Shown: in pieces, positions 51,701 to 64,000 of the stretch | Numbering within the stretch: the stretch's first letter is position 1 | Layout: each line of letters begins with the position of its first letter | Assembly: GCA_037143795.1 (NCBI GenBank) | Contig: JBAWXZ010000005.1 | Span: 130,527-194,526 of the forward strand | Length of the DNA: 64,000 nucleotides | Direction of reading: 5' to 3' | Source of the DNA: Eubacteriales bacterium | GTDB taxonomy: Bacteria; Bacillota; Clostridia; Saccharofermentanales; Saccharofermentanaceae | The notes under the pieces: generated by a model | Told to the model about the DNA's origin: nothing | Seen by the model: only the letters and a program-made list of their open reading frames with translations | Database searches by the model: none | Program-made: the position numbers and the translations under genes

Positions 51701-52723
51701 ATGGGTAAAGTTGTATGTTTCGGTGAAATTATGGGGCGCCTGAACCCTCCTGGGTATCTTAAAGTAGTACAGGCACATTCATTCGAATTATCTTTTGCCG
51801 GCGGCGAGGCAAATGTTGCTGTCTCCGTTGCGAATTTCGGAGCGAAAGCATCCTTTGTAACAAAGCTGCCGAAAAATGATCTCGCAAAAAATGCCCTTCG
51901 TATTTTAAAGGGATACGATGTGGATGTTTCGGATATTGTATATGGCGGCGAACGGCTTGGTATGTATTATGTTGAAAAGGGGGCCTCGCAGCGTCCTTCT
52001 AAAATCATATATGACCGCAAATATTCTTCTATTTCCACCGCTTCCGGAACGGACTTTGATTGGGAAAAAATATTTGCAGATGCGGACTGGTTTCATTTTA
52101 CCGGCATCACTCCGGCATTGTCGGATGAGTTGGCCCGGATTTGCAGCGATGCCTGCACAGAGGCGAAAAAACGCGGTATCTTTATCAGCTGCGATTTGAA
52201 TTACCGTAAGAATTTATGGTCCCCAGAAAAAGCTGGAAAGGTAATGGGCGGCTTAATGCCGTTTGTAGATCTAATTATTGCAAATGAAGAAGATGCAGAT
52301 ATGGTGTTTGGCATCAAAGCGTCCCATACGGATGTTACATCGGCATCCCTCAGTCACGCAGGTTATGAAGATGTTGCAGCCCAATTATGCAGGCGGTTCG
52401 GAAGCGATTATGTTGCGATTACACTTCGCGGGAGTATTTCAGCGAGCGACAACCGTTGGAGCGGAATGCTGTATTCCGACGGACAAAGTAATTTTTCAAG
52501 GGAGTACAATATCCATATTGTAGATCGTGTCGGCGGCGGTGATTCATTTGCCGGAGCACTTATATTTGCACTGCATGAAAAATATGAACCGAAAATGGCT
52601 ATTGAGTTTGCAGCAGCTGCATCCTGTTTGAAACATGCAATCGAATTTGATTTTAATCAGGTTACTGTTTCAGATGTGGAAACCCTGCTGGACGGTGACG
52701 GATCAGGTCGTGTGCAGCGATAA
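51701..52723 (+). CDS. kdgK: PfkB-family sugar kinase, 2-dehydro-3-deoxygluconokinase-like
   Basis: N-terminal VVCFGEIMGRL with GG and a C-terminal DRVGGGDSFAGAL (PfkB signature 2). Confidence 0.8.
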   Translation: MGKVVCFGEIMGRLNPPGYLKVVQAHSFELSFAGGEANVAVSVANFGAKASFVTKLPKNDLAKNALRILKGYDVDVSDIVYGGERLGMYYVEKGASQRPSKIIYDRKYSSISTASGTDFDWEKIFADADWFHFTGITPALSDELARICSDACTEAKKRGIFISCDLNYRKNLWSPEKAGKVMGGLMPFVDLIIANEEDADMVFGIKASHTDVTSASLSHAGYEDVAAQLCRRFGSDYVAITLRGSISASDNRWSGMLYSDGQSNFSREYNIHIVDRVGGGDSFAGALIFALHEKYEPKMAIEFAAAASCLKHAIEFDFNQVTVSDVETLLDGDGSGRVQR

Positions 52724-52769
52724 CCGGAAGGGTTAACTATTGAATCCGAAAATATTAAGGAGATATATC

Positions 52770-53132
52770 ATGGGGAGACAAATAGAGGAAATGGGCTTTT
52801 ATGTTGCGCATATCGGTATCAATTGCATGGATGAAAAAAGTGCGTCACAAGCCGCCAATACATTCTCCGGGATTTTTGGTTTCCCCGTTAAGGATGGGAA
52901 GTCATCTTTGTTTGCCGGTAAGCAAATTGAATTGTTAAAAAGTCCCGGTTATGGATCAAAAGGACACATTGCCGTAATGTCAAATGATATTGATGAATCG
53001 ATCAGACTGCTTTATGACAATGGAGTTGACTTTATATGGGATTCTATTTCAAAGAACGAAAAAGGAGAGACCGTGCGCATATTTTTGAAAAATGAAATTG
53101 AAGGATTTGCGATACATCTTCTGAGAACGTGA
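52770..53132 (+). CDS. Small hypothetical protein, possibly VOC/glyoxalase-like fold
   Basis: FYVAHIGINC... GFAIHLL pattern. AAGGAG RBS. Weak assignment. Confidence 0.35.
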   Translation: MGRQIEEMGFYVAHIGINCMDEKSASQAANTFSGIFGFPVKDGKSSLFAGKQIELLKSPGYGSKGHIAVMSNDIDESIRLLYDNGVDFIWDSISKNEKGETVRIFLKNEIEGFAIHLLRT

Positions 53133-53266
53133 AATAGATAAGTATGCATGATTAGTTTTTCAATCTGAAATATTAACTGGCCGGAAACACCGAAAATGCG
53201 GATTCCGACCAGTTTTAATTTCCCGGGCAATCGAATAAATATTCAGTAAGAAAGGAATGCAAACTA

Positions 53267-54349
53267 ATGAATAACCGGATTACTTTATGTAATGTAAAAA
53301 AAAGACTTGAAGAACAGGCATTTGATTATGAGGTCCTGATGCTCCAGGACGATTTTTCGATATTGTGCTCGGGAAGAGGCGGAAGAATCTTTGGCCCCTT
53401 TGAAAGTGAAGATTCGGAAAGTGTCTTTTGGGTGAATAAAGCTTTCCGATATTCCGAAGCTTTTGCCGGATTTATCCGTGATGAAGAATGGAATATGGGT
53501 GGAGACAGAATCTGGATTGCACCGGAGATACCTTTTTTCGTAAAGGACAGGGCAGCCGGATTTGATAGCTTTATTGTGCAAAAGCATCTTGATCCTGGAA
53601 ATTATGATTTGTGCAGAAGAGCTGATTCCATAATTCTGGATCAGGATGTTATTCTCGATGTTTATCAGAATGCGTGCACAAAAAAAGAATTTCATCTTAA
53701 AAAGACAATTTGTAAAAGTGATAATCCTCTTCGGAATTTGCCGGTATTTGAAGAATTGAGCAGCAAAGTCAAGTTCTGCGGATTTGAGCAGATAATTGAA
53801 TTAGCTGATAATTCCGAAGATTGTGACCTTTACCTTGAGAACTGGATACTTACTCAGGTGAATACACCAGGCATTCTGATTGTTCCCTTTCTGGGAAGGA
53901 TGGAATTTGTTGATTATTTTGAGCCAGTTGAGAAACAGGATTTTTATATCCGGGATAATTATATGGAGATTAATGTTACCGGTGACAGACGGTATAAGCT
54001 TGGATTCAAATCAGTTATTTCAACAGGCAGATCAGGATATTTAAGTAAGCTGTCTGATGGCCGGAGTTATCTGATTATCAGGTCATTCATTAATAATCCA
54101 TCCTCCCTGTATTGCTGCGAACCATTTGATAAACCGGGTCAAACCGGTTGTTCTTCATTTATATATAATGATTCAGGTGCCCTGGGCGGATATGCGGAAA
54201 TGGAAAATCTCGGAATAACAATATCCGGGGATACAGGGAAAAAATGTTCAGCCGATGTTGTTTATAACTGGCTGTATATAGGGGAGGAGACAGCATTAAA
54301 ACAGATAGCGAATACACTTTTGGAAATAAAATTAATCAAATACAATTGA
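53267..54349 (+). CDS. Hypothetical protein (360 aa), last gene of the sugar-acid operon
   Basis: Intact ORF with RBS. No motif recognised. Lower GC than its neighbours. Confidence 0.45.
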   Translation: MNNRITLCNVKKRLEEQAFDYEVLMLQDDFSILCSGRGGRIFGPFESEDSESVFWVNKAFRYSEAFAGFIRDEEWNMGGDRIWIAPEIPFFVKDRAAGFDSFIVQKHLDPGNYDLCRRADSIILDQDVILDVYQNACTKKEFHLKKTICKSDNPLRNLPVFEELSSKVKFCGFEQIIELADNSEDCDLYLENWILTQVNTPGILIVPFLGRMEFVDYFEPVEKQDFYIRDNYMEINVTGDRRYKLGFKSVISTGRSGYLSKLSDGRSYLIIRSFINNPSSLYCCEPFDKPGQTGCSSFIYNDSGALGGYAEMENLGITISGDTGKKCSADVVYNWLYIGEETALKQIANTLLEIKLIKYN

Positions 54350-54638
54350 CAAGTAAACATCTAGGTATGATAATAAAATCATCCTAGATCCGTGATATTT
54401 TTGACTTAATTAAGGAATAGCAGCACATATTAAATTGCCGTAAGATAGCAGAACATATATAAGCCGCCTGTGTCAGCAGAGCATAGTTGCGTTAAAAACA
54501 GATTCAGAATGCAGTCCATCAGTATTATTTTATGACTTAGCCTATTAGTCTTTTTTGCTTTCTCATTTTTGTCATGCGCTTTTTTTCAAATGCCGATTCA
54601 ACCGATCCAAATGCGGTTCCTGAATCTTCGATGAAAGG

Positions 54639-56342
54639 GTGACAGATATGGACTTGAAATACAATAAATGTACGCATCTCCGGGATTTACGCGCACTAAT
54701 TAATTATTCAGCCGGCAAATATGGCGATAAACCGGCTTTTCGGGAGTTTGACGCCAACCATGAAGTGCTGGAATATTCTTTCAATCAACTTAAAACCGAT
54801 ACGGAGGCTTTGGGCGCAAAACTTGTTGCTGATAACATGGCGGGCCGGCATTTTGCCCTGCTGGGCGAAAGCTCATACGGCTATGTCGTCAGTTACCTGG
54901 CTATGGTGAATTGGGTTGGCGTCATTGTTCCTATTGACAGGGAACTGACTGTCGAAGATATCATTAACCTGCTTAATAAAAGTGACGCTGAAGGCATATT
55001 TTTCTCCAATACATTCGCATCCGTTATTCCGGATATTCTTGCCGCATGTCCGGATATTTCATGCACGGTCAATATCAGTTCAACCGCTCCCAGCTTGAAG
55101 TACCATTCGCTGCATGATTTTATCGAAGCCGGACAATCCCTTATAGATCAGGGATTTACTTCTTATCAGGACACGGATCTGGATGTTGATAAGCTCTGCA
55201 CAATTCTGTTTACATCAGGAACGACAGGCGCTAATAAGGGCGTAATGCTCTGCCACAGGAATCTGACAACCTGCCTGTTTGCGGCCATGTCACTTTTTGT
55301 TTTGCCGGAAACCAGTTTTTCCGTACTCCCGATCAACCATTCATATGAATTTAATATTCATGTCCTTGGCAGCATATACGGGGGAGCTGCCCTGTGTTTC
55401 AACGATTCCATCAAGCACGTCAAAGAGAATCTGCAGATTTTTAAGCCGCAGATGAGCCTTATGGTGCCCATGATTGTAGAGGGTCTTTATAAGAATATCT
55501 GGAAGGAGGCAGTAAAAAATAATCTGGATAAACACTTGAAATATGGCATCTGGTACAGCAATTTGATCCGCAAAATTGGAATTGATCAGAGAAGACTGTT
55601 TTTCAATCCGATCCACATAAACCTCGGAGGTAATCTGAAGATGATCGTCAGCGGCGGGGCCCCCCTGAACCAGGAACTGGTAAAAGGCTTTGATGATCTG
55701 GGTATAAGCGTGTATAACGGATACGGCATCACCGAATGCTCACCTCTTATATCATCAAACAGTCCCCTGTACAATAAGCCGGGAAGTGTAGGCGTAATAG
55801 TCCCGGGCTGCACGGTCAGAATCGGAGACAAAAATCCGGAAGGCATCGGCGAAATTCAGGTCAAAGGCGATAACGTCATGCTTGGATACTACAAGGATGA
55901 GGATGCGACCAGAAGATCGTTTACTGAGGACGGGTGGTTTAAGACAGGAGACCTTGGATATCAGAATAAAAAGGGGGTTTTATTCATTACAGGACGCCAG
56001 AAGAACTTGATTATCCTTCCCAACGGGAAAAATGTTCATCCGGAAGAACTCGAAGAACACCTGTTCAAACGCATTAATTATATCCGTGAAGCGGTCGTAT
56101 ATGCCCAGGTGGACGAGAAGGGAAACGACAGTATTATTACGGTGATTGCATACCTCGACCAGCAGTTCACAGATGCGATGGGTATGAGCAGGGCAAAGGA
56201 AATGTTTGAAGAAGATGTAAACAGAGTGAACAGGCATCTGGCAGCATATAAGAGAATAACTCAGGCACTGGTTCGTGAGACTGAGTTCGAAAAGACAACA
56301 ACAAAGAAAATCAAGAGAAATGCTATTAACAGGGGGGTGTAA
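54639..56342 (+). CDS. AMP-dependent synthetase/ligase (fatty-acyl-AMP ligase or acyl-ACP synthetase type)
   Basis: AMP-binding core FTSGTTGANKGVMLCHRNL and YGITE...; then GWFKTGDLG and the PNGKNVHPEELEE C-terminal subdomain. 567 aa. Confidence 0.8.
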   Translation: MTDMDLKYNKCTHLRDLRALINYSAGKYGDKPAFREFDANHEVLEYSFNQLKTDTEALGAKLVADNMAGRHFALLGESSYGYVVSYLAMVNWVGVIVPIDRELTVEDIINLLNKSDAEGIFFSNTFASVIPDILAACPDISCTVNISSTAPSLKYHSLHDFIEAGQSLIDQGFTSYQDTDLDVDKLCTILFTSGTTGANKGVMLCHRNLTTCLFAAMSLFVLPETSFSVLPINHSYEFNIHVLGSIYGGAALCFNDSIKHVKENLQIFKPQMSLMVPMIVEGLYKNIWKEAVKNNLDKHLKYGIWYSNLIRKIGIDQRRLFFNPIHINLGGNLKMIVSGGAPLNQELVKGFDDLGISVYNGYGITECSPLISSNSPLYNKPGSVGVIVPGCTVRIGDKNPEGIGEIQVKGDNVMLGYYKDEDATRRSFTEDGWFKTGDLGYQNKKGVLFITGRQKNLIILPNGKNVHPEELEEHLFKRINYIREAVVYAQVDEKGNDSIITVIAYLDQQFTDAMGMSRAKEMFEEDVNRVNRHLAAYKRITQALVRETEFEKTTTKKIKRNAINRGV

Positions 56343-56346
56343 AAAA

Positions 56347-56577
56347 ATGCTTAACATCATTGTAAAGGATCTGCTGGAGTATGTGGATGTCGAGGAAAGC
56401 ACAATTACGGAAAAAACGAAACCCGCTTCCGACCTGCACCTGAATTCGTATGATTATATCTGTCTGGTAGGCAAACTTGAGGATGATCTCGGCATTACGA
56501 TTTCGGAAAGCGATCTGAGAGGTTTTACTACGCTGGGCGATCTGGACGAATATGTTCAAAAGAAAATGCTCCAATGA
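56347..56577 (+). CDS. Free-standing acyl carrier protein
   Basis: 76 aa. LHLNSYDYICL places Ser in the D/N-S-(L/Y)-D phosphopantetheine-attachment context. The ORF track starts earlier in the same frame, but ATG 56347 follows an AGGGGGG RBS. Confidence 0.7.
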   Translation: MLNIIVKDLLEYVDVEESTITEKTKPASDLHLNSYDYICLVGKLEDDLGITISESDLRGFTTLGDLDEYVQKKMLQ

Positions 56578-57152
56578 TATACATTGTCTGTTCAAAGGGT
56601 GATCGTTTTTTGACGGCACAGGAGCAATCGGATATGTCGCAGCACCTGCTCAGGACAGGGATGTCCGGAGAACATGGAATTGATGTCGTTAATGACGATA
56701 TCATCAGAAATGCATGGGGCAAACCGTTTTTAAAAGATCACCCTGATATTTATTTCAACGTAAGCCATTGTACAGGCGGCGTAGCATTGTCCATATCGTC
56801 ATTCCGAACAGGTATTGATATCGAAAAGGTTCGTTCATTTTCCGAAATTACAGCCAGGAAGATCCTTGCAGATAACGAACTGGAAACCATAAAGAACTCA
56901 AAGTACCCTGAATTGGATTTTTTTCGTTTCTGGACACTTAAGGAAAGCTACTTAAAAGCGCTGGGGATAGGTATATCCTATCCTCTGAATAAAATCAATT
57001 TTACAATCGATCAGAATTCAAATATTACAACGGATTTGAAGGGCTGTATGTTTGGCCTGTTTGAAAACGAACGGAATTTTGTCGCCGCCGTATGTTACCT
57101 GAACCGCAATGATCGCTTGAAGGAAACACTCATATACCGTTTACTGCCTTAA
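56574..57152 (+). CDS. 4'-phosphopantetheinyl transferase (Sfp type)
   Basis: FNVSHCTGGVALS and FWTLKESYLKALGIGI match the PPTase motifs (F/W)(N/S)xSH and WxxKEAxxK. ATGA-coupled to the ACP gene. Confidence 0.8.
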   Translation: MIYIVCSKGDRFLTAQEQSDMSQHLLRTGMSGEHGIDVVNDDIIRNAWGKPFLKDHPDIYFNVSHCTGGVALSISSFRTGIDIEKVRSFSEITARKILADNELETIKNSKYPELDFFRFWTLKESYLKALGIGISYPLNKINFTIDQNSNITTDLKGCMFGLFENERNFVAAVCYLNRNDRLKETLIYRLLP

Positions 57153-57165
57153 GTAGGTGAAATGA

Positions 57166-57870
57166 ATGGAAGACTATATCAGATTCGATCATGTGAAAAA
57201 GATTTACAAAATGGGTGAATATGACATTGAAGCCCTTGCAGGAGTATCTTTTTCCATTAATAAGGGCGAATTTGTCATTATTGCCGGTGCCAGCGGCGCA
57301 GGTAAAAGCACCGTGCTGAATATTCTTGGCGGAATGGACAGCCTGACATCGGGCAAGATTTTTGTGGACAACCGCGAAATAAGCAAATTCAAGCCAAAGG
57401 AACTGATAGAGTACAGAAGGCATGATGTCGGATTTGTTTTTCAGTTCTATAATCTGGTGCAAAATCTTACGGCCAAAGAAAATATAGAGCTGGCATCCCA
57501 GATTTGTAAAAATCCGATGGACATTAATGAAGTCATTGAGGGTGTCGGCTTAAGTGACAGAAAGAAGAATTTTCCTTCACAGCTTTCCGGAGGCGAACAG
57601 CAGAGAGTGGCTATCGCCAGGGCCCTGGCTAAAAATCCCAAGCTTATGCTCTGCGACGAACCCACGGGCGCACTTGACTATAATACCGGAAAGTCCATAT
57701 TGAAGCTGCTTCAGAATACGAGCCGGAATAATGGGATGACGGTAGTCGTTATTACGCATAACCTTGCGCTGACGCCGATGGGCGATCAGGTAATCCGTCT
57801 CAAGAGCGGACTCATTGACTCCATTGTCTATAATCCGGACCCTCAAAGTATTGATGAAATCGAGTGGTAG
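57166..57870 (+). CDS. ABC transporter ATP-binding protein (MacB/LolD/FtsE-like)
   Basis: [24 protein letters not shown], and a D-loop/H-motif (VVVITHN). Confidence 0.85.
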
Positions 57871-57873
57871 CAT

Positions 57874-60800
57874 ATGAAATACTCACTTCTCAAGGATATA
57901 TTCAAAGAGATTGTGAAGAGTCCCAACCGCTTTCTTTCCATATTTTTGATTGTTGGACTTGGAACGGCTTTTTTTGCCGGACTAAAGGCAGCAGCCCCGG
58001 ATATGAAAAATACGGCTGATCTTTATTATGACAATTATAATATGATGGACATCAGGGTACTCTCGACGATGGGTCTTACAGATGAAGACATCGAAGCTAT
58101 GAAGCTTGTTGCGGGAGTCGAGACGGTTCAGCCATCTTACTTTGCGGATGTCGTTACAACCATCCATTCCAACGAGTGTGTTTTTCGTATTCATGCTCTT
58201 CCTGCTGCTGCGATCTCCGCCGGTTCTGAGGACTATCTGAACAAACCCAAAATTGTCGAAGGAAGGCTTCCGGCAAAGTCCGGTGAATGTATTATTGAAA
58301 AGTCAAATGCCGTCGACCTCGGCCTTCAAATCGGTGATACCATGACTGTGGCATCCGGAAAGAAAGAGGATCTGACGAATGTTCTTACTACGGATACTTT
58401 TACCATTGTCGGTAAAGCGGTATCCCCTTATTACCTGACCTATGATAAAGACTCTTCCGACATTGGCAGCGGAAAAGTCAATTTCTTTATGATGATCCTG
58501 TCAACTGATTTCAGCTACCCGGTCTATACAGAAGCCCTGGTAACCGTCAAAGGTGCCAAGGCACTCAACTCATACAGCCCGGAGTATCGTAAGCTGGTCG
58601 AAAAAACATTAAACCAGCTGGATAATGTCGTGGCTGAGCGCTCTGAAGACCGTCTGGCCGAACTTAAAAGTATGGCGACAGACCAGCTGAATGAAAAGAA
58701 GGCAGAGCTTAAGTTAAAAGAAGACGATTTCAATACGCAAATCGCAGATGGGCAGGTAAAATTAGATGATGCCCGGGACAAGCTGGTAGAGGCGCAGGCG
58801 ACACTTGACAGCGAAAAGAAAAACTATGAGATACAGATTGCAGCGGGCCAAAAACAAATCGATGACGGGGAAGCGGAACTAACCCAGGGTAAGATTGATT
58901 ATAATAACGCTGTTATTAAGTACGATCTTGCTCAGCAACAGTACGGCAGCCTTATTTCATCCCTTGATGAAGTTACATCCGCACTCAATCAGGTTGATTC
59001 GGACTCCCAGGTGCAGATCAATGAGATAAACATCAGGCTTGCAACGGACCCGACACTTACCGATCAGCAGCGTGCGGATTTCATGGCACAGAAGGAAACA
59101 CTGCTCGAGAATCAGGCGTCCGCTCAATCCGGGCTGGATCAACTGGACGATCTTAACAGGTCCTCCCAGGCGACCATGAAGGATGCAAAAACCCAGCTCG
59201 ACGATGCGAAGGCCAAACTGGATGCTTCACAGGTAAAGCTTGACCAGGCAAAAGCAGATTTGAACACAGCAAAACAAGAATCTGCCGTCAAATTTGCAGA
59301 TGCTGAAAAACAGATCGCTGACGGTACGGTTGAATATGATACGGCGAAGAAAGATTTTGACACCAAAAAGGCGGACGGAGAAACGCAGATTCAAGACGGA
59401 AAAGAGCAGGTGATCCGGGCGGAGAACCAGATTGAACTGCTATCCAAACCCAATTACTATGTGCTGGATAGAAATAAACTTTACAGTTATGCCGACTATG
59501 CATCTACAGCGGACAGAATGGATGCCATCGCCAAGATCTTCCCTGTATTTTTCTTCTTTGTGGCTGTTCTTGTCTGCCTGACAACCATGACGAGGATGGT
59601 CGATGAACAGCGGGGGACCATTGGGACCTTCAAGGCACTTGGATACACCAAGGTTGAGATTGTATATAAATATGTCAATTATGCGGCATTAGCGAGTGCC
59701 GCAGGCGGAGTGCTGGGTGTAATTGCCGGGATAAATATCTTTCCAAAGCTTATTTTTGATTCATGGTCGATGATGTATTCGCTGCCGCCCATGCAGGCTA
59801 TACCCCAGATACCGCTGATGGTCTTAACTGTAATAGCCGGCATACTAATTACCACGGTCTCGTCCTATGCTGCCTGCAATCAGGAACTCACGGTAACACC
59901 GGCGCTTCTGATGAGGCCGAAAGCACCGAAGGCAGGAAAAACCATCGTAATGGAAAAAATTAATTTTATATGGAATCACCTGAGTTTCAGCCAAAAGGTA
60001 ACGGCCAGAAACATTTTCCGGTATAAGAAAAGATTTTTCATGACGATCATAGGCATAGCCGGGTGCTCCGCACTCCTTGTTGCCGGTTTCGGGCTGAGCA
60101 ACTCTATCGGCCAGATTGTTGAAAAGCAATTTCACCAGATATTTACATACAATTTGAGCATGCGGTTTACTCCGACAGCGACCGATGACGAGAAAGAAGC
60201 TGTTGTACAAAAACTAAGTCAGATTCCTGAAATAAAGTCCTCACTGAAAGCAACGGAGATTAATGCAAAAATACAAAGTAACGGAGAGGAAATAGCCATG
60301 ACTTTAATCTGTCCGGACAACAGCGCTGACTTTTCAAATTACATATCCCTTCAGGACAGAACCTCGCAGAAGAAAATGATGCTGCCTGTGAGCGGACTGA
60401 TTATTACCGAAAAATTATCCAAGGAACTCGGTGTCGGGGTCGGCGATTCGGTCACGGTATATAATGCCGACGAAGCAGTCAAAAAGCTGGAAATTGCCGG
60501 AATAACGGAGAATTATATTTTTCACTATGGATATATCAGCCGCGAGTATTATAAGGAAATTTTCCGGTTTGACCCGGAATTCAATAGTATGCTGATTAAA
60601 TTGAATCAGCCTTCCAAGGATGTTGAGACGGCGCTGGGCAGTGAACTGATTGCCATGGACCAGGTAGCATCGGTTGCTTATTATTCTGATGTGGCCGTTA
60701 AATTTCAGGACACTATTAAAAGCCTGGATGCCATTGTATTGGCTATCATTGGAAGCGCCGGGCTTCTGGCTTTCGTCGTGCTTTATAATCTTACGAACAT

Positions 60801-61125
60801 CAACCTGAGCGAGCGTATTCGTGAGATTGCAACCATAAAAGTGCTTGGATTCTATAACAGGGAGGTTGCTTCCTACGTATACAGGGAGAACATCATTCTG
60901 TCCCTGATCGGTACGGCCGCGGGTTTAGGGTTAGGCATATACCTGCATAGAATTATCATGTCATCCATTGAACAGAACGGCATCATGTTCGGCAATTATA
61001 TAGCCGGTAATAGCTTCCTGTACGCCTTTGCCATTACAATGGCATTCAGCATGCTGGTTAATATTGTCATGTACAGGAGATTAAAGAATATTCCCATGGT
61101 CGAATCACTGAAAACTATTGAATAG
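57874..61125 (+). CDS. FtsX-family ABC permease with duplicated 4-TM FtsX modules and a large coiled-coil extracytoplasmic domain (MacB-like exporter)
   Basis: 1083 aa. TM clusters at ~aa 20-40, ~540-700 and ~940-1083. A long Gln/Asp/Ala/Lys-rich coiled-coil region (QLDDAKAKLDASQVKLDQAKADLNTAKQE) lies between them. Confidence 0.8.
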   Translation: MKYSLLKDIFKEIVKSPNRFLSIFLIVGLGTAFFAGLKAAAPDMKNTADLYYDNYNMMDIRVLSTMGLTDEDIEAMKLVAGVETVQPSYFADVVTTIHSNECVFRIHALPAAAISAGSEDYLNKPKIVEGRLPAKSGECIIEKSNAVDLGLQIGDTMTVASGKKEDLTNVLTTDTFTIVGKAVSPYYLTYDKDSSDIGSGKVNFFMMILSTDFSYPVYTEALVTVKGAKALNSYSPEYRKLVEKTLNQLDNVVAERSEDRLAELKSMATDQLNEKKAELKLKEDDFNTQIADGQVKLDDARDKLVEAQATLDSEKKNYEIQIAAGQKQIDDGEAELTQGKIDYNNAVIKYDLAQQQYGSLISSLDEVTSALNQVDSDSQVQINEINIRLATDPTLTDQQRADFMAQKETLLENQASAQSGLDQLDDLNRSSQATMKDAKTQLDDAKAKLDASQVKLDQAKADLNTAKQESAVKFADAEKQIADGTVEYDTAKKDFDTKKADGETQIQDGKEQVIRAENQIELLSKPNYYVLDRNKLYSYADYASTADRMDAIAKIFPVFFFFVAVLVCLTTMTRMVDEQRGTIGTFKALGYTKVEIVYKYVNYAALASAAGGVLGVIAGINIFPKLIFDSWSMMYSLPPMQAIPQIPLMVLTVIAGILITTVSSYAACNQELTVTPALLMRPKAPKAGKTIVMEKINFIWNHLSFSQKVTARNIFRYKKRFFMTIIGIAGCSALLVAGFGLSNSIGQIVEKQFHQIFTYNLSMRFTPTATDDEKEAVVQKLSQIPEIKSSLKATEINAKIQSNGEEIAMTLICPDNSADFSNYISLQDRTSQKKMMLPVSGLIITEKLSKELGVGVGDSVTVYNADEAVKKLEIAGITENYIFHYGYISREYYKEIFRFDPEFNSMLIKLNQPSKDVETALGSELIAMDQVASVAYYSDVAVKFQDTIKSLDAIVLAIIGSAGLLAFVVLYNLTNINLSERIREIATIKVLGFYNREVASYVYRENIILSLIGTAAGLGLGIYLHRIIMSSIEQNGIMFGNYIAGNSFLYAFAITMAFSMLVNIVMYRRLKNIPMVESLKTIE

Positions 61126-61171
61126 AAAAGAACAGCAGATGAAAAGCACGGCTCAGGCAGGAGGTAAAAGA

Positions 61172-62548
61172 ATGGAAAGCAGAAAGTTATACCCTTTAAC
61201 ACCTTCACAAAAACTTATTTTTCTGGCATGGCAATACACGATACACAAACAGGTTCCGAATATTCCCACATCATGCTTTGTCGATGATGACCTTGACCTT
61301 GCTGTTTTAAAGAATGCGGCCGAAGAAGCTGTTAAACGAAATGACGCATTCGCAATCCGGATTACCAAGCAAGGCAAAGAGAAAATGCAGTACTTCTCAT
61401 ACAGAAGTGTTCTTGCGCTGGAGATGATTGACTTCACCGGTAAAAACACAAAGGATATGGAAGAGTTTTTTTATAAAATCGGTTCGACAAGGATGCCGTT
61501 ATATGATAAACCGCTTGCTAAAATTTACATTGTAAAATCTCCGGATGGGAAAGGCGGCGTGTTTTCCTGCATTTCACATCTGATTATGGACTCCTGGGCA
61601 ATCAGCATGTTTTATAAAGATATTTTTGAAGTGTATTTTGCACTGAAAGACAATGAACCTATTCCCAAGGCGCTGCCTGATTATGAGTCTGTGCTTCAGA
61701 AGGAGATTGCCTACACCTCGTCTGAAAAATATAAAAAGGATTATGCATTCTGGGAGCAGGAGCTATCCGGGCCTAAGCCGATATTTACCCATGTGAACGG
61801 ATCCATCGTCCTTGAGAAGCAGCGTGAAAAGAAGAAAGATCCGCAGCTTCGGTTCGGAAACAGTTTTTTTATCAGGACGACGGCTGCCCATGTGGTTCGT
61901 ATGATTGAAAAAGAGGATGTAGATAAAATGAAGGCATTCTGTCTTGAAAATGGTATTCCAACTATGCAGGTGCTATTTTTGCTGGGAATCAGAAATTATC
62001 TTGCCAAGGTCAACGGCAGGGAAAAGGACGTCAGCATCAATTCTGTTGTAGCACGCCGGGGTACCATTGATGAGAAGCTGACGGGCGGCACACGTGTTCA
62101 CCCGCTTCCGTTCCGGACAATCTTTGAAGAAGATGTTACATTTATGGAAATGCTGAAAATTATATTAGAGAAGCAAAACATACTGTATAGGCATGCCGAC
62201 TTTGACCCGATGGAAGCATTTAAAATCATGCACAAAAACTATGATTTTCCGCCGCAGAATACCTACATTACACTGCATCTGACATTTCAGCCCGTACCCC
62301 TGGAAGCCAAAAACGGAGCCAAAGTGAGAACAAAATGGTACTGCAACGGAACGGCTGCTTCAAATATAGGCGTATCAATCATGGACGGGGACGGTACCGG
62401 GGCACTTAGATGCTACTACGAGTATCACGATAAAATGATAGAGCCGGAAACCCTCGACAAGACCCATAACTATATGAAAAACGTCATTCTCGCAGGAATC
62501 GGGAATCCGCACTTAACACTCAAAGAACTGCTGGATTTACCGGTATAA
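61172..62548 (+). CDS. Free-standing condensation-domain protein (NRPS C-domain / CoA-dependent acyltransferase superfamily), paralog 1
   Basis: C1-like LYPLTPSQKLIFLAWQY, and a variant catalytic motif CISHLIMDSWAISMF (cf. HHxxxDG) ~150 aa in. 458 aa. GGAGG RBS. The ORF track starts at 61118. Confidence 0.7.
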   Translation: MESRKLYPLTPSQKLIFLAWQYTIHKQVPNIPTSCFVDDDLDLAVLKNAAEEAVKRNDAFAIRITKQGKEKMQYFSYRSVLALEMIDFTGKNTKDMEEFFYKIGSTRMPLYDKPLAKIYIVKSPDGKGGVFSCISHLIMDSWAISMFYKDIFEVYFALKDNEPIPKALPDYESVLQKEIAYTSSEKYKKDYAFWEQELSGPKPIFTHVNGSIVLEKQREKKKDPQLRFGNSFFIRTTAAHVVRMIEKEDVDKMKAFCLENGIPTMQVLFLLGIRNYLAKVNGREKDVSINSVVARRGTIDEKLTGGTRVHPLPFRTIFEEDVTFMEMLKIILEKQNILYRHADFDPMEAFKIMHKNYDFPPQNTYITLHLTFQPVPLEAKNGAKVRTKWYCNGTAASNIGVSIMDGDGTGALRCYYEYHDKMIEPETLDKTHNYMKNVILAGIGNPHLTLKELLDLPV

Positions 62549-62613
62549 GATAAATTCTGCTTTCCCACAGGAACACTAAGCGGCAAACAAAATGAACGGA
62601 TGAGGAGAAGAAT

Positions 62614-63996
62614 ATGGAGGAACATACATATTACCCGTTATCACCGGCTCAGCTTCTGAACTTCATGAGCTGGAAATACACTTTTCACAAACAGATCATG
62701 AATATACCGACTTCTTTCCTGATTGAGAAGCAGCTGGATCTTGGTGTTTTAAAGAAGGCTGTTGAAGAAGCGGTTCAAAGGAACGATTCGTTTGGCATCC
62801 GCATTGTAAAGGACGGCAAAGAAACCAGGCAATATTTCACCGACAGGAAATTGCTGCTCCTCGAAACAAAAGATTTCAGCGGAAAGACCGTTGAAGAAAT
62901 GAACAATTTTTTCCACAGAATCGGGGAAAAAAAGATACCTTTATACGAACAGCCGCTCGCTAAAGTTTATATTATCCGATCGCCGGAGGGATTTTGCGGA
63001 ATATATTCCTGTATCTGCCATCTTATGATGGACACCTGGGCGATCAGCATGTTCTATAAGGATATTATGGCTATTTATCATACTCTTACGGAAAATGCAC
63101 CTATGCCGGCTCCCATCAGAAGCTGTGAATCCGTAATTCGGAAAGAAATCGAATATAAAGCATCGCCTCAATACGAAAAGGGTCTGGAATTCTGGCGTGA
63201 AGAGGTTAAAGGTGACGGAACGCTGCCGACTTTCACACATGTCAATGGGCAGGGGATGCTGGAAAGCTACCGCAAATTGATCAGAAAACCGGATTATCCG
63301 TTTGCCCGGACCTTTTTTATGCGGACGACTGCCAGACATGAAGTTCTTCAGGTCGATAAAGACGATGTCGACAGGATGAAGAATTATTGCCTTGAAAATA
63401 ATATTCCAACCATGCAGCTGCTGTTTTTCCTTGGGCTGCGTACCTATCTTTCCCGGGTTAACAACCGGGCAAAAGATGTCAGTATTACCGATGTTGTTGC
63501 ACGGCGCGGGACACTCGAGGAGAAGCTGTCCGGAGGGACCAGACCGCAGGGGCTTTTCTGCAGGACGTATATGGAAGAAGACACTTCTTTTGCCGCTGCC
63601 CTTGATTATCTGATGCAAAAGCATAATTCACTCTACCGTCATGCAGATACTTTCACAATGGATGTTCTTGATATAGTCTATTCGACATACGGCATGAAAT
63701 CGTATGAGGGTTACAGCACTACATTATTTACATTCCAGCCGATTCCGCTTGATTTTGGCAGCGGAATAAAAAGTCATTCGGAGTGGTACTGCAACGGGGC
63801 GGCTGCATGCAGCCTCTATATTATGGTCATGGACGGCGAAGAGGAGGGCTCGCTGCGGTGTTATTACGAATATATGGACAAGATCATTAAAGTTGCAACA
63901 TTAAGAACATGCCATAATTACATGCTTAATGTTATCAGGGCCGGCATCGCGAATCCGTCAATAAAACTGAAGGAACTATTGGAACTTCCCCTTTAA
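62614..63996 (+). CDS. Free-standing condensation-domain protein, paralog 2
   Basis: YPLSPAQLLNFMSWKY and CICHLMMDTWAISMF, ~55% identical to paralog 1 by eye. 460 aa. GAGGAG RBS. Confidence 0.7.
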   Translation: MEEHTYYPLSPAQLLNFMSWKYTFHKQIMNIPTSFLIEKQLDLGVLKKAVEEAVQRNDSFGIRIVKDGKETRQYFTDRKLLLLETKDFSGKTVEEMNNFFHRIGEKKIPLYEQPLAKVYIIRSPEGFCGIYSCICHLMMDTWAISMFYKDIMAIYHTLTENAPMPAPIRSCESVIRKEIEYKASPQYEKGLEFWREEVKGDGTLPTFTHVNGQGMLESYRKLIRKPDYPFARTFFMRTTARHEVLQVDKDDVDRMKNYCLENNIPTMQLLFFLGLRTYLSRVNNRAKDVSITDVVARRGTLEEKLSGGTRPQGLFCRTYMEEDTSFAAALDYLMQKHNSLYRHADTFTMDVLDIVYSTYGMKSYEGYSTTLFTFQPIPLDFGSGIKSHSEWYCNGAAACSLYIMVMDGEEEGSLRCYYEYMDKIIKVATLRTCHNYMLNVIRAGIANPSIKLKELLELPL

Positions 63997-64000
63997 ATAC

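Follow-up and report, generated by a model that had tools for sequence, protein, structure and literature searches.

The 64,000-nt stretch of contig JBAWXZ010000005.1 analysed here (the window; Eubacteriales bacterium, assembly GCA_037143795.1) carries, in the region 54,639-64,000, seven tightly packed open reading frames (ORFs) on the + strand, which encode in order an adenylating enzyme (the ligase), an acyl carrier protein (ACP), a phosphopantetheinyl transferase (PPTase), an ATP-binding cassette (ABC) ATPase, a permease and two condensation-domain proteins, C1 and C2 (Table 1). The locus is an uncharacterised, distant variant of the known fatty-acid-amide (FAA) pathway, in which both the chemistry and the three-protein logic are already established, and its ligase, ACP and C1/C2 are all recognizable as homologues, though distant ones, of the characterised Oaa system. 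An earlier note on this DNA had claimed seven co-directional genes, close together or overlapping, and had predicted the Pfam domains PF00501, PF00550, PF01648, PF00005, PF02687 and PF00668; all seven ORFs are present on the + strand with the sizes that it gave, and each of the domains scores above its gathering score.

Table 1. Coordinates of the operon, its parts and its upstream elements in the window
Feature	Position	Strand	Description
Promoter	54346-54374	+	sigma-70-type, TTGACA-17 nt-GATAAT
Leader / 5' untranslated region	54375-54647	+	~265 nt, modestly AT-rich
Ligase	54648-56342 (alternative start 54639)	+	564 aa from 54648; ANL-superfamily adenylating enzyme
ACP	56347-56577	+	free-standing, 76 aa
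PPTase	56574-57152	+	Sfp-type, 192 aa; shares 4 nt with the ACP gene
ABC ATPase	57166-57870	+	234 aa, LolD/FtsE/MacB type
Permease	57874-61125	+	1083 aa, fused two-module FtsX/MacB-type (type VII ABC)
Permease helical hairpin	58579-59439	+	sub-feature of the permease, residues 236-522 (predicted)
C1	61172-62548	+	458 aa, free-standing condensation-domain acyltransferase, motif SHLIMDSW
C2	62614-63996	+	460 aa, free-standing condensation-domain acyltransferase, motif CHLMMDTW

Condensation proteins and proposed acyl supply

FAA pathways combine a free-standing adenylation (A) domain, an ACP and a condensation (C) domain (Chang et al., 2021, Nat Microbiol 6:792, as described in PMC13310621 and PMC10871352), and the fatty-acid amides that gut Clostridia make are ligands of G-protein-coupled receptors (GPCRs) and have been linked to inflammatory bowel disease. 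The reference enzyme is OaaC, the FAA synthase of Coprococcus eutactus and a homodimer, which in vitro makes fatty-acid amides from acyl-ACP and free amines; its crystal structure (PDB 12KH), the first of an FAA C domain, was reported in a 2026 JBC paper (PMC13310621). The same paper describes a C_FAA clade of 127 sequences that is sister to starter C domains and has the motif (D/H)HxxxDS.

C1 and C2 match OaaC over almost their whole lengths, C1 at E 1.9e-61 (residues 4-455, 30 % identity) and C2 at E 1.7e-49 (residues 5-457, 26 % identity), which answers the comparison with characterised FAA synthases that the earlier note had proposed. The next PDB matches of the two are the C domains of modular non-ribosomal peptide synthetases (NRPSs) at about 1e-10 and VibH at 8e-6; those of C1 include starter C domains of the CDA-C1 type as well as VibH, and are weak (E 1e-10 to 1e-5) and mostly confined to the N-lobe. 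PF00668 is found in both proteins (127 bits in C1, 112 bits in C2), placing them within the condensation superfamily, where the earlier note had put them. In neighbour-joining (NJ) trees (Poisson distances, 200 bootstrap replicates), the stand-alone C proteins, including OaaC and C1/C2, are monophyletic with respect to three modular NRPS C domains in 200/200 replicates. An exhaustive search of representative proteins returned 274 clusters at E<=1e-30, in which stand-alone C proteins some 460 aa long grade into one another.

None of the aligned family members departs from the catalytic His and Asp, which lie within a motif that reads (S/N/C)HxxxD(S/T)W in the cassette clade as against DHRLxDSC in the Oaa clade. 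In C1 (SHLIMDS) and C2 (CHLMMDT) the second-position His and the Asp are invariant, and the DS of the motif is kept in C1 and changed in C2. The two proteins are 52 % identical to each other and have positional orthologues in two other genomes (L003 and L010), with support of 154/200 for the C1 and 200/200 for the C2 orthologue group; they are old paralogues that have both been maintained. Only three differences between C1 and C2 are fixed across the four orthologues of each, none of them near the catalytic motif, and these were dropped as an uninformative guide to specificity.

C genes belonging to the clade of C1 and C2 are also found where there is no such operon: one Oscillospiraceae metagenome-assembled genome (MAG) has four or five of them (L011:8519-16444, L012:128-9333 and L009:6796-11377), and their neighbours encode GT2/GT4 glycosyltransferases, a GDSL acylhydrolase, an aldehyde dehydrogenase, a zinc-ribbon protein of 1065 aa and further AMP-binding enzymes. 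Three C genes in tandem, from another clade of stand-alone proteins (33 % identity to C1), take up the whole of a 3.3-kb contig (L034:3-3309), so that tandem C arrays are not confined to the pump-linked clade.

The ligase contains PF00501 (188 bits) and also PF23562, and its translation shows TSGTTGANKG, YGITE, TGDLG, GRQKN and a C-terminal TKKIKR. Its best NCBIfam family is a long-chain-fatty-acid--CoA ligase subfamily, with a score under the cutoff of that family. Among solved structures it scores highest with luciferases and CoA ligases (115 bits at most), and lower with a Legionella fatty-acyl-AMP ligase (FAAL; 3kxw, 56 bits) and the acyl-ACP synthetase 8jyl (54 bits). The earlier note had named it a FAAL, and it may or may not be one in the strict sense. 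As a stand-in for OaaA itself we used the ligase encoded two genes from an OaaC homologue of 68 % identity (L031), to which the window ligase aligns from end to end (35 % identity over 548 positions, 289 bits, E 4e-95); identity to the ligase of another Oaa-type locus (L032) is 33 %. From synteny and from this homology to an Oaa-type ligase, we infer that the cassette ligase activates a fatty acid and loads it onto the ACP.

The ACP scores 23 bits with PF00550 (cutoff 20.8) and up to 40 bits with NCBIfam ACP models. It is 27 % identical to an Oaa-type ACP, and the modifiable serine on which the earlier note had made its reading depend is present and conserved: Ser34, in DLHLNSYD, is invariant across 18 cassette ACPs and aligns with the serine of FSS(F/L)D in the Oaa-type ACPs. 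The PPTase (PF01648, 59 bits; GIDIE and WTLKESYLK in the translation) has HetI, AusB and AcpT as its top NCBIfam matches and is classed as an Sfp-type enzyme on its ACPS-superfamily domain and its similarity to the Sfp/HetI/AcpT type.

The ABC pump, operon limits and recurrence

The permease and ATPase together are a type VII ABC system, as defined by an FtsX-type module of four transmembrane (TM) helices, a MacB-like extracytoplasmic domain lying between TM1 and TM2, and a cognate ATPase. The ATPase scores 125 bits with PF00005 and 180-200 bits with NCBIfam models of the LolD, FtsE, DevA and MacB types, and its translation shows Walker A, the signature LSGGEQQR and the Walker B sequence LMLCDEP. 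In the permease, PF02687 (102 bits) and PF12704 (54 bits) are each found twice, and hydropathy predicts eight TM helices and two extracytoplasmic domains. An AlphaFold2 (AF2) model of the permease, made with 33 homologues as input (pLDDT 81.9), has E. coli YbbP (9ge6_A) as its best Foldseek match (E 4e-20, TM-score 0.63 normalized to the target), followed by BceB, LolE/C, MacB and HrtB, with E-values for the whole set of 4e-20 to 1e-10. The description of this pump as a MacB-like exporter was thus right as to the FtsX/MacB type, but in its fold the permease resembles the fused YbbP type more than MacB.

The first of the two extracytoplasmic domains contains an inserted, predicted hairpin of about 280 residues, which in the AF2 model consists, according to DSSP, of two uninterrupted antiparallel helices (residues 236-391 and 397-522). 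The hairpin is rich in D, A, Q and K and has weak coiled-coil matches in sequence searches, the MacA hairpin among them (E 0.007); were it straight, its length would be some 20 nm. As the hairpin is single, it could not form a MacA-like duct, and no separate membrane-fusion adaptor gene of the kind found in tripartite MacAB systems is present in the operon or in its conserved relatives. There are 1576 homologues of the permease at E<=1e-20, and those with at least about 50 % identity stay within the cassette. Pumps 42 % identical to the window permease (L036:6674-11387) lie in TetR-ABC-FtsX operons without biosynthetic genes; they come from Holdemania-type gut bacteria and are abundant in metagenomes. 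From these two levels of identity we conclude that the biosynthetic genes captured one branch of a widespread family of Gram-positive pumps.

No fewer than 17 different genomes, from both Clostridia and Actinomycetota, have the gene order ligase-ACP-PPTase-ABC-FtsX-C(n), as established from the genes around C1 homologues, from a scan in which each species was represented by one genome, and from a tblastn census. The cassette permeases elsewhere are about 1080 aa long and the gaps between genes are of a few nucleotides, while the flanks are unrelated between genomes; with its order kept under these conditions, the arrangement is not due to chance. The clostridial hosts are MAGs of Eubacteriales, Oscillospiraceae and Mageeibacillus, Proteiniclasticum, Clostridium swellfunianum, C. 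folliculivorans, C. polynesiense and other Clostridia MAGs, and the actinomycetotal hosts are MAGs of Brooklawnia, Propionicimonas and Dermatophilaceae. Four high-GC Actinomycetota MAGs (L019, L023, L025 and L028) have the full cassette at a GC content of 60-66 %, which is 2-5 points below that of their flanks; in L019 the PPTase gene lies 3' of the C gene and not after the ACP gene. Overall, the GC content of the cassette tracks that of the host from 32 % to 66 %, so that its transfer is not recent. Carriage on plasmids was also considered and was rejected, since PLSDB holds no close relative of the cassette and its sole match is a 21 %-identity sequence from Bacillus.

The number of C genes varies between genomes. 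A single copy is commonest (about 11 genomes), and two copies are present in four (the window, L003, L010 and L014), three in one (L007:7020-11374) and six in one (L004:1963-11374). The arrays of three and six lie 3' of the pump, and their copies are 60-78 % identical to one another and form a lineage-specific clade in 200/200 replicates. Further AMP-binding genes lie a few kilobases 3' of the cassette in two close relatives that have two copies, and encode an 871-aa fusion of an AMP-binding domain with an AP_endonuc_2 (xylose-isomerase-like) domain at L003:16910-19525 and a ligase 34 % identical to the cassette ligase at L010:13975-15642.

The exact C2 protein and the same locus are found on a 196-kb ENA contig (L001), on which the gene following C2 is a convergent alpha/beta-hydrolase (abhydrolase_3); the operon therefore ends at C2, and the further genes that the earlier note had thought possible past the window edge do not exist on the + strand. 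This hydrolase gene was rejected as a member of the cassette, as apart from the window only its closest relative (L003) has it, and the hydrolase encoded in a Lachnospiraceae FAA locus is a different, unrelated one. Upstream, at 51701-54349, the + strand encodes a PfkB-family sugar kinase, a weakly matching glyoxalase-like protein and a DUF6786 protein, and these were likewise rejected, since they do not adjoin the cassette in other genomes. The gaps between genes, from the ligase to C2, are 4, -4, 13, 3, 46 and 65 nt. Of the two possible ligase starts, the ATG at 54648 is the likelier, being preceded by GAAAGGG and agreeing with the gene call on the identical contig L001. A longer ORF for C1, with a TTG start at 61118, also exists, yet all homologues begin at the ATG at 61172.

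The putative promoter matches the consensus at 11 of 12 positions and is the best promoter-like site in 54000-64000. In the window, L003, L010 and L008 the sequences upstream of the cassette have diverged except for the -35 and -10 blocks of this site, ATTGACAA and GA(T/A)AAT, which do not vary. The stretch 54350-54638, which had been described as an AT-rich promoter region, is only modestly so (GC 0.35-0.39, as against 0.43-0.48 within the genes), although a promoter does appear to lie at its start. A riboswitch or attenuator in the leader was rejected: Rfam gave no match for the leader at E<=1 (and none for the whole window at gathering score), its folding energy is not lower than that of shuffled sequences (z +1.48), and no terminator-like site is present within it on the + strand.

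Proposed function and its alternatives

We consider it probable that the locus is a self-contained operon which makes and releases fatty-acyl conjugates, most likely N-acyl amides. The Sfp-type PPTase would convert the dedicated 76-aa ACP to its holo form, and the ligase would charge this with a fatty acid, probably a long-chain one. C1 and C2 would each then move the acyl group from acyl-ACP to a freely diffusing nucleophile, using the His and Asp of their (S/C)HxxxD(S/T) motifs; with only a single carrier protein encoded in the cassette, the acceptor would not be carrier-bound. The two enzymes probably differ in the amines that they prefer, such that two head-group variants would be made from one acyl pool. 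The amphiphilic products would enter the membrane, from the outer leaflet of which the ATPase and the YbbP-like permease would pull and expel them, perhaps aided by the hairpin; type VII ABC systems, YbbAP included, are described as pulling lipid-like molecules from the membrane by mechanotransmission and not as moving them across it (PMC12646458). The sequence data establish the genes and their domains, the catalytic residues, the homology of the three core proteins to the Oaa pathway, the single carrier, the tight and conserved linkage, the end of the operon and its promoter. What we infer in this scheme is the fatty-acid substrate, the amine acceptors, a difference in specificity between C1 and C2, and how and in which direction the pump transports. 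The position of the pump genes in the middle of the operon speaks for it, and the similar reading in the earlier note, from ligase to holo-ACP to acyl transfer by the C enzymes to a MacB-type pump, is supported as far as sequence evidence reaches.

Several observations weigh against N-acyl amide synthesis and release. No product is known for any member of the cassette sub-clade, and enzymes of the C superfamily are able to form esters too. The identity of C1 and C2 to OaaC is only 26-30 %, the cassette-linked C clade excludes the OaaC group in 172/200 NJ bootstraps, and where FAA C domains are reported to begin their catalytic motif with D or H, the cassette clade has S, N or C. Type VII ABC pumps can serve in self-protection, as those of the BceAB kind do, and not in product release. 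In addition, the occurrence of same-clade C genes among glycosyltransferase, GDSL and AMP-binding genes suggests that some acceptors may be glycans or components of the envelope.

The last of these points leads to an alternative in which the C enzymes acylate a membrane-bound or surface acceptor (perhaps a glycolipid, an amino-sugar, the head group of a lipid or a polymer akin to teichoic acid), and the pump moves or presents a lipid-linked product. The neighbourhoods in question (the off-cassette C genes of L009, L011 and L012, with GT2, GT4, GDSL and AMP-binding genes) favour such a role, as does the fact that type VII ABC systems typically handle membrane-embedded lipids or lipoproteins together with extracytoplasmic partners, and the long hairpin would extend into the wall. 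We nevertheless regard acylation of the envelope or of a glycoconjugate as unlikely, because no cassette among those of about 17 genomes includes a gene for a glycosyltransferase or for polymer synthesis and the flanking genes vary, because the patchy distribution and a C number of 1-6 are better suited to an accessory metabolism, and because the nearest characterised enzyme takes free small amines.

The presence of two C genes could also mean that C1 and C2 act in sequence at two positions of one acceptor to give a single di-acylated lipid; the positions might be the two amines in a diamine or in a basic amino acid, or first an amine and next a hydroxyl. One ligase and one ACP here serve two old and maintained paralogues (52 % identity, with orthologue groups in three genomes), and two-step acylation of one head group does occur, as with OlsB and OlsA in the synthesis of ornithine lipid. 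We think double acylation rather improbable, given that a single C gene is the commonest arrangement (about 11/17 genomes), which implies that one acylation is enough for function, and that the arrays of three and six are recent, lineage-specific expansions with the look of diversification and not of a set multistep pathway. Least likely, in our estimation, is that the pump acts in self-protection, against a membrane-active product or compounds from outside, or is otherwise not a product exporter, with the product leaving passively or staying inside the cell. The TetR-ABC-FtsX operons of the pumps with about 42 % identity, which lack biosynthetic genes (L036), and the BceB-type resistance transporters among the structural neighbours of the permease are what such a role would lead one to expect, but permeases above about 50 % identity remain inside the cassette, and the pump lies nearly always between the PPTase and the C genes, with gaps of 3-46 nt and in two phyla, which points to a product-coupled function. 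A pump may, moreover, serve both export and self-protection.

Within synthesis and release of N-acyl amides, the variation in C number allows a more tentative proposal, which we hold to be possible but doubtful, that the cassette is a secretion-coupled generator of a lipid-amide repertoire, in which one acyl pool feeds an expandable tandem array of one to six C enzymes and a hairpin-bearing extractor lifts the products from the membrane and through the wall of the Gram-positive cell. It is part of this proposal, and put forward with equal reserve, that the C copies arise by local duplication and diverge in the amine head groups that they use; as OaaC is a homodimer, heterodimers of C copies might also form. 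If true, this would amount to an uncharacterised route of small-lipid signalling or antagonism among anaerobes that does not depend on an animal host and has spread between Clostridia and Actinomycetota by transfer. The same three-enzyme chemistry is in any case present in a second, divergent lineage with its own PPTase, and the fixed link to a pump addresses the exit of such lipids from a Gram-positive cell, which the Oaa-type clusters leave open. The range of one to six C genes provides a natural experiment in acceptor specificity as well as new biocatalysts for amide formation. Since the relatives are largely in organisms that are not gut commensals by name, and some are in Actinomycetota, a role at host GPCRs should not be assumed, and this distribution suggests an ecological role broader than host signalling.

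Comparison with known systems

The closest known systems are the Oaa-type FAA pathways, with which the cassette shares a free-standing adenylating enzyme, an ACP and a C domain, the lack of a carrier protein for the acceptor and, apart from the first residue and the Ser that C2 lacks, a non-canonical catalytic motif of the pattern xHxxxD(S). The earlier note had pointed to clusters of gut Clostridia that make GPCR-active fatty-acid amides, and this precedent is real (Chang et al., 2021, as the later papers present it), with homology in the three core proteins; its term NRPS-independent, however, is a misnomer for which the literature has NRPS-like, given that the C, A and thiolation (T) domains are all of NRPS type. 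The window proteins are only 26-35 % identical to their Oaa-type counterparts, and C1 and C2 fall in a separate sub-clade (172/200). The Oaa-type loci that we recovered from OaaC homologues have the genes C-ACP-A with a divergent TetR and are without a PPTase or a pump, so that an order of C-T-A stands against A-T-PPT-pump-C(n) in the cassette, into which a PPTase and a type VII ABC pump are built. The ebf/ecf FAA loci of Enterocloster add a PPTase, an SCP2-like protein and a hydrolase (PMC10871352), and the cassette is without the SCP2-like lipid-transfer and hydrolase genes. Oaa-type loci have one C gene as against one to six in the cassette, the hosts of which, unlike those of the Oaa type, include Actinomycetota and some Clostridia outside the gut commensals.

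In the likely class of product, N-acyl amides or lipoamino acids, the cassette resembles the NAS genes of Bacteroidota and others, which give commendamide-type products. These differ in belonging to an unrelated enzyme family with another mechanism and in lacking the trio of ACP, C domain and ligase; the NAS route to N-acyl amides (Cohen et al., 2015, 2017) is termed 'an unrelated pathway' in PMC10871352. Lipoinitiation (starter) C domains such as CDA-C1 are similar to C1 and C2 in using an acyl donor, and VibH in being a free-standing C domain with a free amine as the acceptor, but unlike C1 and C2 they work within or with modular NRPS lines and with peptidyl or aryl carrier proteins.

Among transporters, MacAB-TolC and the Gram-positive pumps of the MacAB type (Spr0693-0695 and YknXYZ) have in common with the window pump the FtsX/MacB fold, the type of ATPase and a long alpha-hairpin in the machine; in these pumps, however, the hairpin belongs to a separate hexameric adaptor (MacA or Spr0693), whereas in the window a single hairpin is fused into the permease. 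E. coli YbbAP(-TesA) (9ge6; PMC12646458) has a similarly fused, pseudo-symmetric two-module permease of the FtsX type with two MacB-like domains and a separate ATPase, and its proposed role is the extraction of hydrophobic molecules from the membrane (PMC12646458). YbbP and the window permease are about 9 % identical in the Foldseek alignment and have 10 TM helices and a predicted 8, respectively, and the window permease further differs in its hairpin of about 280 residues, its Gram-positive host and an operon without a TesA-like partner. We found no description of a pump-linked layout in the searchable open-access literature, which does not cover the text of Chang et al. (2021) itself. Relative to that literature, the new elements of the cassette are its fixed, hairpin-bearing and fused type VII pump, the built-in PPTase, the variable C array and the variant of the catalytic motif, together with a distribution that crosses phyla and lies largely outside gut commensals.

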